Positions 36,891 to 52,273 of a stretch of 64,000 nt of DNA are shown piece after piece. A program made the translations under genes and the position numbers. Origin of the DNA: Leptolyngbyaceae cyanobacterium (GTDB lineage Bacteria > Cyanobacteriota > Cyanobacteriia > Phormidesmidales > Phormidesmidaceae); contig CBDHHL010000039.1 of the NCBI GenBank assembly GCA_965263355.1, positions 1 to 64,000 of the forward strand, read 5' to 3'. The notes under the pieces were generated by a model, which had not been told where the DNA came from, made no database searches, and saw nothing but the letters and a program-made list of their open reading frames with translations. Numbering within the stretch: the stretch's first letter is position 1; each line of letters opens with the position of its first letter.

Positions 36891-37097
36891 TCAAGTCAAA
36901 ACTCTAAGATGCTTTCCCGTTGGCTTTCCGCTTTTCAGTGCTGCTTCAGGGAATTCTGGCAATGATACCTCATCAGGGGACTGAAACATGCCATTACGAC
37001 GCCTGCCGAGATATTCTCCTGTTTTAGGATCAAACTGATAGCCCAGCTTACGAGCTAATTCGTGCCGTTCGTTTGGAACGTCTGAAAGATTCGCCAT
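36891..37097 (-). CDS. Hypothetical protein
   Basis: 68 aa; ends just before the terminator. Confidence 0.5.
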   Translation of the reverse strand: MANLSDVPNERHELARKLGYQFDPKTGEYLGRRRNGMFQSPDEVSLPEFPEAALKSGKPTGKHLRVLT

Positions 37098-37998
37098 TGC
37101 TAAAAATCCAAAATATTATCCAACTAAATGCGGCTGCGTCGTACCAAAAAATAGACCACAGCAAAAAAATAGACCACACCAAAAGCACCCTACCGCGAAT
37201 AGTCCAGAGCAACCAAGCCCATAGCCAGCCATAAGCTAGCAAGCCTAGGAAGCCTGTTTCTATTAGCCTGTCGAGCCAAATATTATACGAATGCTTAGTA
37301 TCTTCATCAGGGAAAGCGCCGTCCGAGCATTGATACGACCACCGCGAATATTGAAGTATGCCCACTTCGCGGCATTGACGAAACGCTTTTTGAAGATTCA
37401 AGCCATTGAACCCGTAGCCAATCAAAGGCGATCGCTGAGCATATCTGAATGCCCTAGCCCAATAGTAGGTTCGATTTGAACTGATCCGTCTGATCTGCGC
37501 CATCACTGGAGTATGGGGCGATGCTGTCTCCCCAACTTGCTTATTGTTTGTCACAAGTCCAATAAAGACTAGTGCCGATAGCACGACGGGGATACTTCGC
37601 TTCCAGCCAATAGCTACCAAGTTGCAAATAACGGCCCCCAGCATGGCTATCCTTACGCCAGTATTCAGTGTGGCAATCGTATAAAGAACCAATAGCCATT
37701 TATTGGCTTTGTACTGAGCAGCAACGGCGCAGCACATCAGCATAAACCCTGCATATGCGCCAAAGTTTCCGAACAGCCCATGCATGGGATACTGTTCAAA
37801 GCCAATGCCAAAAAAGTGAAGTACCCATTGAGTGAGGCCAGCGGCTGCATTAATTACCCCTCCAATATGGAAGCCCGTTAGTTGGGCTTGGAATAGTTCG
37901 GGTCGTTCTTTAAGGATTAGTCTGTTAAACAAAAAAAACACAGCCACGGTTATCCACCAAAGAAGCCCGCAAGCTTTTCCGTAGTAACCAAGGACACT
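37048..37998 (-). pseudogene. O-antigen ligase/Wzy_C-like membrane protein, apparently 5'-truncated at the IS end
   Basis: GLFGN, NTGVRIAML, SSNRTYYW, PLIGYGF, HSYNIWL..LIETGFLG motifs; the track's start (GTG 38013) lies inside the IS right-end hairpin. Confidence 0.6.
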
Positions 37999-38038
37999 TT
38001 GACAAACTCCCACGGATAAATCACGTGGGATTCCCCGG

Positions 38039-39163
38039 TCAAGCAGCGATAGCAGGCTGAGCCCGTCTTACATCGCCTTCCGGTTGAGCGGTCATTGCCC
38101 CGACCGCTTTAATGTTCTTGCTGGCGTTATCATCCCGGTCGTGAATGGTCAAGCACTCTGGACACTGCCATTCACGCACCTTGAGATCTAGGCTATCGAG
38201 GACATGACCACACTCTGAGCAGGTTTTAGAGCTGGGATACCACTGGTCAATGTAGACCACTTGCTTACCCTTCTTAGCTGCAACACATTCCAGAATGCCG
38301 AGGAATTCAGCAAAAGCTAAATCGTTAACCTTGCGTCCCCATAGCCGTTGCATCCCCTTGAGGTTCAACGTCTCAAAATAGAGAATATCGAACTCATCGG
38401 TTAATCTGTGGGCCAACTTCCAAAACCAATCTTTACGACGGTTAGCGATAGTCTCATGCTTGCGAGCAAGGTTTAATCGTGCCCGTTCCCGATTAGCCGA
38501 TCCCTTTTTCTTTCGGGATAACTGGCGGGATGCCTTTTTGATCTCCTTAATAGACTGCTTAAAGAACAATGGCGACTGAATCTTGAAGCCTTCAGAGCAG
38601 GTGAGAAAGTCTTTCAGGCCAAAGTCAAAACCAGCGGTTTTACCCGTCTCGGCAGTGACCCGAACGTCTACAGAATCAACGACAACGGCAATAAATAACT
38701 CACCTAACGGTGTCCGCTTAATGGTGAGCGTTTTTACCTTGCCATCAATCTCTCTACTATTCCAGAACTGATAGACCTTATTCCCTATCTTCAGACGATT
38801 GCCGCCAAGGAACTTATAGCCAGCTTGCTTAAGTGTGAATGATTTATACTTTTTAACCTTCTTAAATGACGGTGGCTTAACCCCCTTGTCATGGTGCTTA
38901 AAGAACAACTGATATGCCCGCTCAATCCGTTGACAGATATCCTGCACAGCTTGAGACCCCACCAACTGCCAAAACGGGTTACGCTTTCTAAGCTTGGCGA
39001 TATGCTTCTGAAGCTTGGCACAGTTCAAGTGCTTGCCAAACATGCGGTAATACCGCTTATGCAAAGCAATGCAGTGGTTATAGATAACGCCAGCAGCATT
39101 GATAGACCGCTTTAGATACCTATTCCGTTTGTGACTGTATAACTTAAACTTCAGTGTTCTCAT
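38039..39163 (-). CDS. tnpB: TnpB RNA-guided nuclease
   Basis: ATG 39163; RuvC D (GFDFG), E (FETL), D (DRDDNA); CSEC/CPEC zinc finger all intact. Confidence 0.95.
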   Translation of the reverse strand: MRTLKFKLYSHKRNRYLKRSINAAGVIYNHCIALHKRYYRMFGKHLNCAKLQKHIAKLRKRNPFWQLVGSQAVQDICQRIERAYQLFFKHHDKGVKPPSFKKVKKYKSFTLKQAGYKFLGGNRLKIGNKVYQFWNSREIDGKVKTLTIKRTPLGELFIAVVVDSVDVRVTAETGKTAGFDFGLKDFLTCSEGFKIQSPLFFKQSIKEIKKASRQLSRKKKGSANRERARLNLARKHETIANRRKDWFWKLAHRLTDEFDILYFETLNLKGMQRLWGRKVNDLAFAEFLGILECVAAKKGKQVVYIDQWYPSSKTCSECGHVLDSLDLKVREWQCPECLTIHDRDDNASKNIKAVGAMTAQPEGDVRRAQPAIAA

Positions 39164-39204
39164 ATGTCTATGATAACATGATATAGACATATAGCAATAG
39201 ACAA

Positions 39205-39603
39205 ATGGCGCAAAAATATCGACATGATAATACGTCGGTCTCACTCATCAACTATCACTTTGTTTGGATAGTGAGACGACGCAAAAAGATATTGAAGGGG
39301 GATCTAGATAATCGCCTGAAAGAACTGATACGTCAGGCAGTTACAGAAATTGACTGCCAGCTGATAGCACTAGAAACCGATTTAGATCACGTTCATCTAT
39401 TTCTGAATGCTCACCCACGGTTAGCGCCCTATCAAATCATGCATAAGGTTAAGGGGTTAAGCTCCAACGTTCTGAGAAAGGAGCAACCCTGGTTAAAACA
39501 AAAACTCCCGTCACTATGGACAAGGAGCTATTTTGTGAGCACTATGGGCAATGTCTCAGGGGATACGATTAAGCGCTATGTTGAGGAACAGAAAACTAAA
39601 TGA
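39205..39603 (+). CDS. tnpA: Y1 HUH transposase
   Basis: YHFVW, DHVHLF (HUH), LWTRSYF, IKRYVEEQ (catalytic Tyr). Confidence 0.95.
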   Translation: MAQKYRHDNTSVSLINYHFVWIVRRRKKILKGDLDNRLKELIRQAVTEIDCQLIALETDLDHVHLFLNAHPRLAPYQIMHKVKGLSSNVLRKEQPWLKQKLPSLWTRSYFVSTMGNVSGDTIKRYVEEQKTK

Positions 39604-48135: not shown

Positions 48136-50016
48136 TTAGCTTTCATCCATTACTGTAGGGCAATTTTCAGGAATAACAAATGCTTCAAACCGTTGGCCTG
48201 GCCCTCTCGCTGGCCTATTTTTGAGTGCCTTAACGAAGCTTTCATTATTTAATCCCAACGGGATAGCGTCACCACCAATAACAGCGTTTAGTCCATCGCG
48301 TCGATAATGACCCCAAGAGCTGGCACAGGAGCAATAGCGAAGCCCATAGGCCAAAGCTCTGATATCTTCGCATTTTGGGCAAAATATAAGCTTCATCACA
48401 AACTTCAATAAGCCGCTGCCAACCTAGGCATCTTATATCGTGAAAGCAGCGGGCACACACACATTATAAAGGCTCAGGACTTAATAAAATCCTGAGCCTT
48501 TTAGCATTAAACCTTAGTCACCGTTGCCCCTGGATTATCGGCCCTTGCCTCTCTCAAGGCTTGAGCATAATCTTGGTAAACGTATTCAACCGTTGGACCA
48601 TTATTTATCTTGAACTTGAACGTCTGTAACTTCTGCTTCATATTCTTGACTTTTTCCGAATATTTCCAATAGCAATTTTTGTGATACACCTGATTGTTTT
48701 TGAGCTTTTTTAGCAGCTTCTGCAAGTGCCAGCTCAATACTTCTATCTGAAAGTAGACTGCTTAGTATTTCCATGAATTCCTTCTTTGCCTAAATTGTGT
48801 TTTATGGAATCCTCCATCATGAGCTTTAGAGTCCCCAAACGATGTTTTCCGATGACTTCCTGACGGCTTCGCGATCGACTGTTGCACATAGCCGAGCGCC
48901 TTTAATGCCGCCACACTAAGCCAACCAACACGCGGCAGAAATGCATCTCCTGTAACAGTATCAAAAGACAAATTAATGTCTTGTCCTTTATGCTTGAAAG
49001 GCCACTGAATGACCCGTTGACTATTACAACTTTTCAAGATATTCCCCCATTGCTTTTGAAATAACGATTTCACGTTGTTTCTGAGTTTTAACCGGCATTC
49101 CTGTTATGGCTGCATACTGACGGATTGCCAGGTTTAGCGCCGTTGGTTCTGTGGCTGTAGCGATCGTTTTAGCTACAAATTGTCGCCATTCTTTAGAACT
49201 AAGGACTTTAGCCATGGTTATTTAACGCTTGCAAGATTTTCATTTTTGTTTCGTTATCAACGCCTTGAAGTTGATTAACCAAGTCAGGCATCAACAAATT
49301 AATTTTTTCTTGCTTGCTTAACCCTGTCGGCAGAGTCGGCCTAGTAGCTGTCAAAAGCTTTTTATTAATTGGCCTTCTTTCTTCCCGTTGCCATGCCTGA
49401 ATCGCCATAATCTTTCTCGTAATAAACATCAATCCTTGGCCAAAGAACAACATACAAAGCAGTTAATACAAGGGATGCCGCCAAGATTACGATCCCTACC
49501 TGCAAGAAAAGACTTACCATTTTACTGAAACCTGCGTACACAACGCCTTTTGTTGTTGATAATCGTAGATCGCTTCCTCGTGAGTCGCGAAACATCGGTC
49601 AGACACTAGAATATTTGTTTTCCATGTCCAAAAACCATCTGAAGACTGGAAATATGTAACTTGATCCACTACTGCAACTCCTATTCGTTTTACTGATCAG
49701 AAAAAGCTAAATGTATTTTCAGTAAATCTGAAAGATGTTGTTTTTCAATTTCGAGAAGAGCTTTTTCGTTATTTTTTTGACACAATTCAGCGTCGAGATT
49801 GATATACTCTTCGTTCGTGCTTGTTAGATGGCTTAATGCAGCTTTGCGAGCGTCTGCATTTTTTAACGTTTTATCACTATTAACTTCCTGGCTTAATTCA
49901 GTAAGCTTTAGTGACATCGCTTTATTAATGCCAGCAATTAAATTAGATGTCGCTAATATATCTAACTTAATCTGATGCAACTTATCAGCTAGATCAATGC
50001 ATTCGTTTTTCATCAC
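48136..50016 (-). CDS. Run of small leftward early genes (48136-48408 Cys-rich, 48762-49073, 49024-49215, 49208-49453, 49690-50016 coiled coil)
   Basis: Co-oriented short ORFs; hairpin terminator AAAGGCTCAGGA/TCCTGAGCCTTT at 48468-48501. Confidence 0.55.
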
Positions 50017-50273
50017 AATTCTTCTGCTAGTTGTTTAATAAACTCTCTAACACCCTGTTCATTCCTGGTGTAATCGACGAAACTTGCCCGTTTTACACCA
50101 GTCACAAGACCCGCAGCTTCTAACTGCCTCAAATGCCTAGAAGCCGTAGGATGATGCACCCCTAAGGCGATAGCAACCTGGCCACTAGTGAGCACGCTTT
50201 CTCTTTTCAGCACTTGCATAACCTCCAGTCGGCCAGGGTTAGCAAGCGCTGAAAGACAATCATGTACGCTCAT
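50013..50273 (-). CDS. ArsR/SmtB-family HTH regulator
   Basis: ALANPGRLEV...VHHPTASRHLRQLEAAGLV...Y. Confidence 0.85.
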   Translation of the reverse strand: MSVHDCLSALANPGRLEVMQVLKRESVLTSGQVAIALGVHHPTASRHLRQLEAAGLVTGVKRASFVDYTRNEQGVREFIKQLAEEL

Positions 50274-50601
50274 TTTCCGTTTTTAGGCAAGTAACAGAGA
50301 GTTTCCCAACATATAAACCGCTGTGTTTTCGACGCTTTGACGGCTCGATAAAGACTTCAGCGATATCCCCAGACTGATAACCGTTAATAGGTCTTAACGG
50401 ATAGTTTGGATGCTGTTTATTCTCGGCAATGGCTGCAGCTTTGCAATCCTCCAGGGAGCCTGTTGCTGCAACTGGCTGGCCATATGGCGAATACTCCCAG
50501 CGCATAGCTGTGAGATTGAATCCGATGTGGCCCAGTTTCTCTGCCTCGTTCAGGACAATCCATTGAGTGCTGTGAGTTTGGCGAAATGTTATGGTGGTCA
50601 T
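50260..50601 (-). CDS. Hypothetical protein ending in an IscB C-terminal-like segment
   Basis: ATG 50601; GYQSGDIAEV...SGLYVGKLSV resembles IscB GFQTGDxV...GxYxGRV. Confidence 0.55.
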   Translation of the reverse strand: MTTITFRQTHSTQWIVLNEAEKLGHIGFNLTAMRWEYSPYGQPVAATGSLEDCKAAAIAENKQHPNYPLRPINGYQSGDIAEVFIEPSKRRKHSGLYVGKLSVTCLKTENERT

Positions 50602-50631
50602 AAGGCTAAATAATTGTGGGATCTTCTCCCA

Positions 50632-50885
50632 AGCATTGCTGTAAAGTTTGCCTCGAAACTGTTGGGAAAGGTTGATAGACAAGAGACACAGGCTTATAAA
50701 CCGTTCGTCTATACTGTTTAATCTCAAGTCCTCAGAGCTACAAACTGGCGGTCATTCGCAGGTGAGTCGCATTAAAGCGTCACTTTCTCAACGTAGATAC
50801 TTAAACCCTTGCTTTCGCAACTTCAGTCATTTCTGAAGATTCTGCACGTTACTTCCCTGCTAAGCAGGTTTGACTACATCTGTAC
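50632..50885 (-). ncRNA. HEARO/IscB omega-RNA-like structured RNA without iscB
   Basis: Ordered landmarks CTACGTT, ACC..TG..GCCAGT...GCTCTG, TTAAACAG, CGAGGCAAACTTTAC with helices preserved. Confidence 0.75.
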
Positions 50886-50901
50886 GGATTTGTCTAGGTT
50901 T

Positions 50902-50997
50902 TTAGTAACGGTTCCAGTTAAGTTCTATGTGCCCCTGGTAGCCTTTCTCTGGCAGAAAAATAGACCAGGAGTCACTGCCTTTTTCTTTTAGTGTCAT
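50902..50997 (-). CDS. 31-aa leader ORF MTLKEKGSDSWSIFLPEKGYQGHIELNWNRY
   Basis: AAGGA RBS right after the promoter. Confidence 0.4.
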   Translation of the reverse strand: MTLKEKGSDSWSIFLPEKGYQGHIELNWNRY

Positions 50998-51026
50998 TTT
51001 CCTTTTTTGGAAAGTGTTCAATTCCA

Positions 51027-51055
51027 ATTATGGATGTTATTTCCAAATCTGTCAA
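51027..51055 (-). promoter_or_regulatory. Near-consensus sigma70-type promoter
   Basis: TTGACA-17-CATAAT. Confidence 0.75.
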
Positions 51056-51057
51056 TA

Positions 51058-51411
51058 CTAAATTGCCGCAAACTGTTGAATTGACAGATTAATCTGCTCT
51101 CGCTTCTGCCAAAGGCTGCCTAGCTTTTTAGATTGTTTTTTCTCTAGCCAAACACCATGTTCAAGATAGTAGCTAATCTCATGTGCCTTTAGCCCTCTAT
51201 GGGCCAAAATCTTTTCTAATGCCTGAAAAGAAAAGTCGTCTAGTTGCTTAACATAATTGCCAGAACGCCAAGCCGCAATTGTTTGATGACTTGCTAGTCC
51301 ATCGCAGCGATCGCTTAGGTCTCGAACCGTTGCATCAATTCCAGCTGCTTTAAGTATCTTTTTCGATAGCAGCTCTGATAATCTTTGTTTATATTGCGTT
51401 GATGCTCTCAT
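51058..51411 (-). CDS. Putative HTH regulator
   Basis: TVRDLSDR...SHQTIAAWRSG XRE-like pattern. Confidence 0.5.
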   Translation of the reverse strand: MRASTQYKQRLSELLSKKILKAAGIDATVRDLSDRCDGLASHQTIAAWRSGNYVKQLDDFSFQALEKILAHRGLKAHEISYYLEHGVWLEKKQSKKLGSLWQKREQINLSIQQFAAI

Positions 51412-51421
51412 GGCCGTTAAA

Positions 51422-52273
51422 CTATGAAACTAAAACTTTCAGGCTAATTATTTCGATGGGGGGAAGTGCCCCTAGTGACAACATGCCCTGCTTACATTCA
51501 TGAGCAAGGCTCAAATCAGGCTTGCTTGCTAAATTTACTCCTCTGTAAATAGTATTTACAGATTCCTTTGATTCTAGGATATCAAATTGTTTGGGCGGTC
51601 GCAGTAAATCAATTAAGTATTTTGCTGAACCATCGCTTAAGTTATCGGCTTTATCGCCGACTGCTATCTTCCATCGCCAAACATCATCACATCTAAATGA
51701 TTGATAGCTAGGCAATGCCCACCATTTTTGACGTTTCTTAGATTGCTGGTTCCATTTGCTGCAAAGCCAATTAAATATCTCTTCTCGACTTCGAACCCGT
51801 GGTGGATGGTTGCGAGTATTTAGCCAAAAAATATCAGGGTCTTGGACTAACCCATGCCAGTCACTATCAACGGTGGCCAAATAAATCTGATCGATTAATC
51901 CTGAGCTGCCATCTAGCCATAGCCGAACAATAGCAGCGGCTACGTCGTCGGCTTCTTGTGATTTTATGTCAATCAAAGAAGCACTACTGCTTAATATGCC
52001 CTCCATCGCAGTATGAAATGATGCGGGTTTAGGTTTTCGGCCTGCTTTGTAGTCGGGGAATAACTGATTACGCCAGTAGGGCTTAGAGTCAATTGCCCAG
52101 ACGCATCTACCAGTTGATTGCAACGCGGGAATCCAGCCTAGTGAATTAACCCATTCTGCCGCCATGTAAGCGTAAGCTTTAGCATTAGTTTCGGTTAGGC
52201 CTGCCTTGTCAATCTGTGCCGACATTTGGAAGGCGATCACAGACGTATCAACAACAATTAAATTATTCATCAT
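51422..52273 (-). CDS. 5'-3' exonuclease/flap endonuclease (T5 D15/T4 RNase H-like)
   Basis: VDTS, WAID, WR..FPDYKAGR, EADD, DSD, GDKADN. Confidence 0.9.
   Translation of the reverse strand: MMNNLIVVDTSVIAFQMSAQIDKAGLTETNAKAYAYMAAEWVNSLGWIPALQSTGRCVWAIDSKPYWRNQLFPDYKAGRKPKPASFHTAMEGILSSSASLIDIKSQEADDVAAAIVRLWLDGSSGLIDQIYLATVDSDWHGLVQDPDIFWLNTRNHPPRVRSREEIFNWLCSKWNQQSKKRQKWWALPSYQSFRCDDVWRWKIAVGDKADNLSDGSAKYLIDLLRPPKQFDILESKESVNTIYRGVNLASKPDLSLAHECKQGMLSLGALPPIEIISLKVLVS

Follow-up and report, generated by a model that had tools for sequence, protein, structure and literature searches.

A HEARO RNA, the omega-RNA of IscB, lies on the minus strand of the DNA analysed here, between the cut-off start of a phage early gene and a 113-aa ORF whose end overlaps an ArsR-type gene. 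The whole stretch that was analysed, referred to below as the window, comprises 64,000 nucleotides of a contig from a Leptolyngbyaceae cyanobacterium assembly and is a tailed phage, with PHROGs matches to major head, portal, large terminase, tape measure, primase and Dda-like helicase genes. The locus is held by a long minus-strand cluster of replication-type genes that includes a protein with a polymerase-like exonuclease domain and a 5'-3' exonuclease. A sequence-only reading of this DNA had placed an omega-RNA in the replication or early gene cluster of a phage, and the RNA indeed shares the orientation of the cluster and lies downstream of a promoter-like site. This minus-strand site, TTGACA-17-CATAAT, had also been pointed out in that reading and is present as a consensus match; it is the sole one in 49500-52000, where shuffling gives an expectation of 4.5. 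A search of the INPHARED phage collection returned nothing resembling the region or the polymerase-like protein. The features of the locus are:

51055-51027, minus strand: promoter-like site TTGACA-17-CATAAT, a consensus match at 11/12 positions, upstream of the interrupted early gene
50997-50905 (stop 50904-50902), minus strand: 31-aa ORF, about 28-29 codons of the early gene followed by 2 codons and a stop from the element
50927-50912, minus strand: flank at the guide position beside the omega-RNA end, by the rule given in Meers et al. (bioRxiv 10.1101/2023.03.14.532601)
50875-50911, minus strand: transposon end and subfamily-specific 5' extension (CCGTT...AAAACCTAGACA and a small hairpin), aligning with the first 37 nt of elements elsewhere
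50874-50641, minus strand: HEARO / IscB omega-RNA scaffold (RF02033, model positions 1-211)
50838-50809, minus strand: extra hairpins CTTCAG/CTGAAG and TTGC-GAAA-GCAA, absent from 11/11 relatives (A6) and from 3/3 (A7)
50631-50617, minus strand: terminator-like 3' hairpin followed by a T-rich run, with 5/5 pairs and 2 compensatory changes relative to the relatives
50404-50601, minus strand: N-domain, residues 1-66 of the 113-aa ORF, of a small cyanobacterial prophage-protein family and in place of IscB codons 1 to about 358
50290-50397, minus strand: scrap of the IscB C-terminal (TAM-interacting) domain, residues 69-104 of the 113-aa ORF, detected by BLASTP, hhalign and tblastn
50260-50273, minus strand: right junction of the block (50272/50273) with the last codons and stop of the chimeric ORF, where contigs have loose ends at 50272 in 3/3 runs
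50013-50273: ArsR-type gene (ArsR/HTH_20, E 1.9e-12), its start overlapped by the end of the chimeric ORF

The HEARO RNA and its structure

The identification of the RNA as HEARO in the sequence-only reading is borne out by a full-length match to Rfam model RF02033 in a 1.2-kb search of 50100-51300 (64.3 bits, E 2.1e-12), though the score is below Rfam's gathering score of 83 bits, with which no RNA is reported in the whole 64 kb. The helices named in that reading (GTTGAGAAAG/CTTTCCCAAC, CTGCGAA/TTTGTAG and GAC..GAGA..TTAAACAG/CTGT..TCTC..GTC) are all present in the covariance-model alignment. Against the same model, IscB-linked relatives score 68 (L036), 93.5 (L045) and 100 bits (L048), and 64.3 bits is therefore near the lower end of the range for working-looking copies. 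Because L036, which is linked to an IscB gene, itself scores below 83 bits, the HEARO cut-off of Rfam misses part of the cyanobacterial subfamily that has an extra 5' stem. With other HEARO RNAs (RF02033) the window's RNA has in common its core helices, conserved loop and 3' tail, and also its place at a transposon end, the guide position falling in the adjoining flank. It differs in its lower score (64.3 bits against the 83-bit threshold), in a 37-nt 5' extension outside the model, in two extra hairpins and in that no iscB gene comes after it.

We derived a consensus structure with RNAalifold from 11 relatives aligned with MAFFT, leaving the window out. The relatives form 49-58 of 51-58 consensus pairs. 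In the window's RNA 42 of 58 are standard pairs, 23 of them unchanged, 14 changed on both sides and 5 changed on one side. Compared helix by helix with the 11 relatives, the window keeps 7/7 pairs of the closing stem, 8/8 of the central hairpin, 4/4 of the flanking stem, 5/5 of the long-range helix and 5/5 of the 3' hairpin. The earlier claim that the core helices are intact is therefore upheld, many of them having been kept through compensatory changes relative to the relatives. The 16 pairs scored as broken fall mostly at the window's own indels, where MAFFT misaligned a helix that the covariance model aligns well, and decay since the loss of IscB is therefore not visible. These comparisons show that structural constraint shaped the RNA, though not necessarily within the phage, and all of the compensatory changes could have arisen while the element was still an active transposon. 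Minimum-free-energy folding of the RNA is not exceptional (z -1.49).

It had also been proposed that a multi-hairpin domain replaces the usual IS-end hairpin at the 5' side of the RNA. This was not confirmed: some of the domain belongs to the normal architecture of the subfamily, and two hairpin insertions are without counterpart in the 11 relatives, one being the pair of hairpins at 50838-50809 and the second lying at about 50781-50769 (absent from 11/11 aligned relatives). At the other side of the RNA, the terminator-like 3' hairpin is directly followed by the start codon of IscB in intact relatives, and by the chimeric ORF in the window.

The element end and the position of the guide

Among 401 sampled cyanobacterial genomes there is no close relative of the window's RNA, the best match (in G267) having 72% identity over 112 nt. 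HEARO is present in 12 of 151 sampled cyanobacterial genomes, and 0 of those copies are close to the window's. When the element end and omega-RNA of G267 (L033) were used as the query, 18 of 301 genomes of one order, its own, gave matches. With the window's element as the nhmmer query, L045 was the best match (E 1e-18) and L033 and L036 followed at E 6e-15. By these alignments the closest relatives of the window's element are IscB-linked elements in cyanobacterial genomes, and the window's RNA is a member of a divergent cyanobacterial IscB/HEARO subfamily. Viral and JGI metagenome contigs gave 0 matches either to a 22-nt core stretch or to a degenerate pattern for the subfamily end.

The start of the element can be read from copies elsewhere. 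Two copies in G267, 99.6% alike, begin at CCGTTCGTGAAAACCTAGACA, 37 nt upstream of GTCAA, the bases with which the Rfam model begins, and the same start occurs with unrelated flanks in L037-L040, L042, L048, L056 and L057; the corresponding position in the window is 50911. The 37-nt extension is part of the RNA, as judged from pairing. Bases 50910-50904 pair 7/7 with 50853-50847, and 2 of these pairs differ on both sides from those of the relatives, among which the stem also covaries; through this covarying 7-bp stem the extension closes a three-way junction (L036, L038-L040, L045, L048 and the window at 50875-50911). Ahead of GTCAA lie 14-16 variable bases, which fold into a small hairpin that differs in sequence from copy to copy.

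Since the element of this subfamily begins 37 nt upstream of the Rfam model, at 50911, positions 50880-50910 are scaffold and not guide. The sequence-only reading had taken them for the guide; they are conserved transposon-end scaffold and align with the first bases of other elements. According to Meers et al. (bioRxiv 10.1101/2023.03.14.532601), the guide of an omega-RNA is taken from the flank that adjoins the element end, which in the window would be 50927-50912. Use of these bases as a guide may be supposed from their position. They fall inside the 31-aa ORF, and 50912-50927 has no second match in the window at <=3 mismatches. A TAM was not readable from the five far-end flanks of subfamily elements.

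The far transposon end itself is missing: the omega-RNA end is present at 50911, and the end of about 75 nt that follows the IscB stop in relatives is without match in the window. Sequence after 50607 is unlike the far ends of relatives, and the left deletion junction, 50607/50606, lies just past the last hairpin of the RNA. Because the far end is lacking, the remnant is not a mobile mini-transposon. A further candidate, an ORF-less mini-transposon ending before the ATGA start codon (a lead from Kapitonov et al., PMC4810608), was rejected because the bases before the start of the 113-aa ORF are unlike the relatives' far ends and the IscB scrap lies beyond the foreign domain. We also noted that CTGTTACTTGCC (50286-50297, within the IscB scrap) is alike at about 10/12 positions to the last bases of the relatives' far end; the block boundary is a further 13 nt away, and the likeness is taken as chance.

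The chimeric reading frame and its variants

The 113-aa ORF is intact and in frame on the minus strand and belongs to no Pfam or NCBIfam family. By sequence comparison it is a chimera of an N-domain from a prophage-protein family and a scrap of IscB. Its final part had been described as resembling the IscB C-terminal domain, and the comparisons agree: the ORF matches the G267 IscB, which belongs to the subfamily, by BLASTP at E 1e-7, and hhalign places residues 69-104 on columns 359-391 of an IscB profile (E 5.9e-6, probability 85%). In a tblastn search of IscB against the whole window the scrap appears at E 1.3e-4, and with a cyanobacterial IscB HMM it is the top match among 2508 six-frame segments of the window, but only at E 1. 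Together the HMM and tblastn recover only IscB residues of about 339-405 in the window, and no iscB ORF lies downstream of the RNA. As the earlier reading held, the ORF lacks RuvC and HNH motifs (PLMP, RuvC, bridge helix and HNH are all missing, and only the start of the C-terminal domain aligns) and the omega-RNA stands without its nuclease, IscB being reduced to the scrap with no other piece in the window. The possibility that the scrap is a generic SH3-like motif (ribosomal protein L19, E 0.33) was set aside after the IscB match at E 1e-7 was obtained.

The N-domain has relatives of its own. Among 1.8 billion representatives, phmmer with the 113-aa protein gave 17 matches at E<=0.001, none of them recognised as IscB. 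The sole close relative of the protein is P0001, which is 98% identical. Twelve family members (P0002-P0005, P0007, P0008, P0010 and P0013-P0017; 82-758 aa, 11 of them <=213 aa) match residues 4 to about 67 at E 4e-15 to 6e-4. The other matches are P0006, P0009 and P0012, long proteins that match in several stretches (P0006 and P0012 are repeat proteins), and P0011, which is also long (1756 aa). A family HMM built without the window's own sequence matches residues 4-66 of the ORF at E 1.1e-26. Two genomic members of the family (L001, 3977-4459, in Adonisia turfae; L002, 3995-4459, in a cyanobacterial MAG) lie in prophage-like regions, and divergent Cro/CI-like repressor genes adjoin the family genes in these two cyanobacterial genomes; HEARO was found neither near these two members nor elsewhere in their genomes. 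Within the family, one conserved N-domain is joined to several unrelated C-terminal halves. IMG/VR contained 0 relatives of the 113-aa protein, the exonuclease or the family alignment. AlphaFold models residues 1-60 of the ORF at a pLDDT of about 95, and confidently to 63, as a beta-sheet-plus-helix fold; residues 73-113 are modelled poorly and the IscB scrap has a pLDDT <50. A fold search of the model against the PDB gave 0 matches at E<=0.001. Derivation of the N-domain from IscB was rejected, as hhalign of the family against the IscB profile gave a probability of 0.2%.

The 31-aa ORF, which had been seen between the promoter-like site and the RNA and is there at 50997-50905, represents the beginning of an early gene, truncated in the window and reading on in variants that lack the insert. 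A resemblance of the ORF to the N-terminus of the 113-aa ORF was not supported: BLASTP found none, 22 of 2000 shuffles scored at least as high as its 35 in Smith-Waterman alignment, and the HMM of the N-domain family gave no match to the 31-aa segment at E<=10.

Variants of the locus were found in contigs from three public runs of one study, a source that consists of contigs only and cannot show absence. Contigs over 50227-50912 have 2 differences in 686 nt relative to the window, and in contigs still carrying the block about 20 of 122 positions differ in the adjoining 50912-51033. Other contigs match the window only outside 50273-50911 and have loose ends at 50272 and 50912 in 3/3 runs; one joint, 50272->50910, was recovered in run X1 at a depth of 6.9. 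The left boundary of the block is precise relative to insert-free contigs, and the right one is a deletion junction, the insert-free sequence consisting of 30-letter ends only. Read by hand from such a loose end, the insert-free form carries the 31-aa frame on without a stop, and it ends in frame with the last codons and stop of the 113-aa ORF, in two versions with synonymous differences only. The start codon of the ArsR-type gene (50271-50273), read in the same way, is GTG in the insert-free variants and ATG in the window.

The block is found in at least two left-flank haplotypes, which diverge right at the end of the element. Block-bearing and insert-free alleles are found side by side in these runs, the former outnumbering the latter. 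A further contig in 3/3 runs shares 50858-50607 and continues with an IscB-like start, MSNYVFLI (as in L045 and L048), and has a different 5' part. High-depth contigs in 3/3 runs also join HEARO motifs at 50658 and 50838 across an interior, with sides of 21 letters; these contigs probably come from other HEARO copies in those samples.

Origin and possible roles of the remnant

The alignments and contigs described above establish the identity, boundaries and chimeric make-up of the block and its polymorphism in phage populations. We consider it probable that the block is an immobilised remnant of an ISC/IscB transposon (IS200/IS605 superfamily) of a divergent cyanobacterial subfamily that is read through by the operon. 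On this reading, an early gene of the tailed cyanophage would have been interrupted after about codon 28 by the element, which went in omega-RNA end first and in the orientation of the operon; it is in this orientation that IscB omega-RNAs obtain their read-through transcript. Rearrangements that came later would have deleted the far end and left about 36 codons of IscB, all from the C-terminal domain. By such rearrangements, too, about 66 codons from an unrelated prophage early-protein family would have taken the place of the first 358 or so of IscB, the replacement beginning 5 nt upstream of the start codon. This could have come about through several deletions that followed two insertions, or through patch recombination with another phage. 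What resulted would be a single in-frame chimeric ORF of 113 aa, its end still overlapping the next gene's start. Transcription of the omega-RNA gene and the element end presumably occurs only as part of the operon RNA made from the promoter-like site (51055-51027); the element could no longer transpose, and the block may spread among related phages by recombination. The events would have followed in this order, with transcription as outlined, and the RNA would have no selected function in the phage.

IscB-less copies make up 11 of the 22 assessable subfamily loci in cyanobacterial genomes (25 loci less 3 that were cut by contig ends and dropped), the other 11 having IscB, and an IscB piece at E<=1e-3 was found in 0 of the 11 orphan loci. 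Non-autonomous, ORF-less relatives have been described in Meers et al. (bioRxiv 10.1101/2023.03.14.532601) and Kapitonov et al. (PMC4810608). As IscB-less copies are thus common in the subfamily and ORF-less relatives are described, we rate the block as a real, well-bounded and fairly ordinary remnant. Like the PATE-like ORF-less IS200/IS605/ISC derivatives treated in these sources, it would be a guide-RNA gene needing a nuclease in trans; it differs from them in that its IscB scrap is fused to a foreign domain and in that it resides in a phage and not in a chromosome. It is a well-resolved example of the decay of an RNA-guided transposon inside a phage, in which the RNA is whole, the nuclease has been replaced and the far end lost.

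The sequence-only reading had proposed that the omega-RNA is domesticated. The orphan frequency of 11/22 weakens this proposal, as does the fact that the compensatory changes could predate the phage. No diverged homologous phage loci in which selection might be seen were found, the 113-aa protein having one close relative that is 98% identical, and domestication is therefore not supported. Nor is constraint visible within the phage, where the block is nearly invariant among variants while 50912-51033 differs. Several features nevertheless speak against a mere passenger. The whole omega-RNA and its end are intact, and of the remaining element about 90% has been lost; an intact RNA with a junction just past its last hairpin would also be expected under selection. 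Plain recombination does not predict so sharp a haplotype boundary at the end of the element, and no single simple event explains the position of the foreign N-domain between the omega-RNA and the IscB scrap.

A first alternative is that the RNA acts as a guide in trans, which we regard as unlikely but as the foremost of the alternatives. The read-through RNA would carry the roughly 16 bases of 50927-50912 as a putative guide, with which a host IscB of the subfamily would cut the uninterrupted allele. Such cutting, in an extension of the same idea that is no more probable, would kill a competitor or copy the block by repair, making it a nuclease-free homing element. The scaffold is complete with its core helices kept, and the orientation and the upstream promoter-like site fit the read-through rule given in Meers et al. 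(10.1101/2023.03.14.532601), where omega-RNA-only elements served in trans are also discussed; homing of transposons between co-infecting phages is discussed in a 2026 review (PMC13565253). The contigs, too, are consistent with such a role, as both alleles occur together in these runs, the block is almost the same in flank haplotypes whose divergence sets in sharply at its end, and a related copy (50858-50607, then MSNYVFLI) is present in 3/3 runs. However, that related copy differs in its 5' hairpin region, binding might suffer from the two extra hairpins of the window's RNA, a TAM is not derivable from the far-end flanks, and the contigs of one study are weak population evidence.

In its most specific form, which we hold to be distinctly unlikely, the phage would keep only the guide-RNA gene, borrow IscB from the host and cut the same gene in rival insert-free phages. 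This would explain why the RNA alone survives, why a near-identical block is found in divergent backbones and why the block-bearing allele exceeds the insert-free one. If the RNA does recruit host IscB against insert-free phages, this would be a new mode of phage competition, and the guide RNA and its nuclease would, in a natural system, be encoded on different genomes. Provided that a trans guide operates, the block would spread, or keep rivals out, by cutting the block-free allele in co-infecting phages, just as the free-standing homing-endonuclease genes of phages do, or as in the 'transposon non-restorative homing' of the same review (PMC13565253); unlike phage homing-endonuclease genes, the phage here would carry only the RNA, with the nuclease coming from the host. 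In a limited search of the literature on IscB in cyanophages and on standalone omega-RNA in phages we found no omega-RNA-only phage element described.

Alternatively, the RNA might act in cis as a structured leader, a role that seems to us very doubtful. The RNA body and the 3' hairpin with its T-run (50631-50617) would attenuate or stabilise the operon transcript and, in a part of this proposal that is just as doubtful, set the translation of the chimeric ORF and of the ArsR-type regulator behind it. The terminator-like hairpin does lie 16 nt before the start of the ORF, and the chimeric ORF has taken over the IscB start position exactly. The same hairpin covaries and precedes the IscB start codon in intact relatives, but it was then inherited from the transposon and is not new in the phage, and insert-free variants run the same operon without it.

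That the 113-aa chimera is the RNA's working partner, a nuclease-free mini-RNP in which the IscB scrap binds the RNA or the TAM, can hardly be credited: the ORF is intact, in frame and kept in variants (P0001 being 98% identical), and no stretch of the IscB C-terminal domain is more conserved than the scrap, but only about 36 of roughly 430 IscB residues are left with the RNA-holding parts absent, the scrap is modelled as disordered (pLDDT <50), and no second protein of such make-up occurs among the 1.8 billion representatives.

A complete IS605-type element is also present in the phage, at 38039-39603. Its TnpA (Y1 transposase) is encoded at 39205-39603 on the plus strand (Y1_Tnp, E 5e-38) and its TnpB at 38039-39244 on the minus strand (OrfB_IS605 and a Cas12f1-like TNB domain). 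Together with the IscB remnant, this element therefore brings the insertions of the IS200/IS605 superfamily in the phage to two. The element is adjoined by a 321-aa ORF (37048-38013) with a Wzy_C / O-antigen-ligase-like domain (E 1e-13), a membrane-protein gene that is unusual for a phage.
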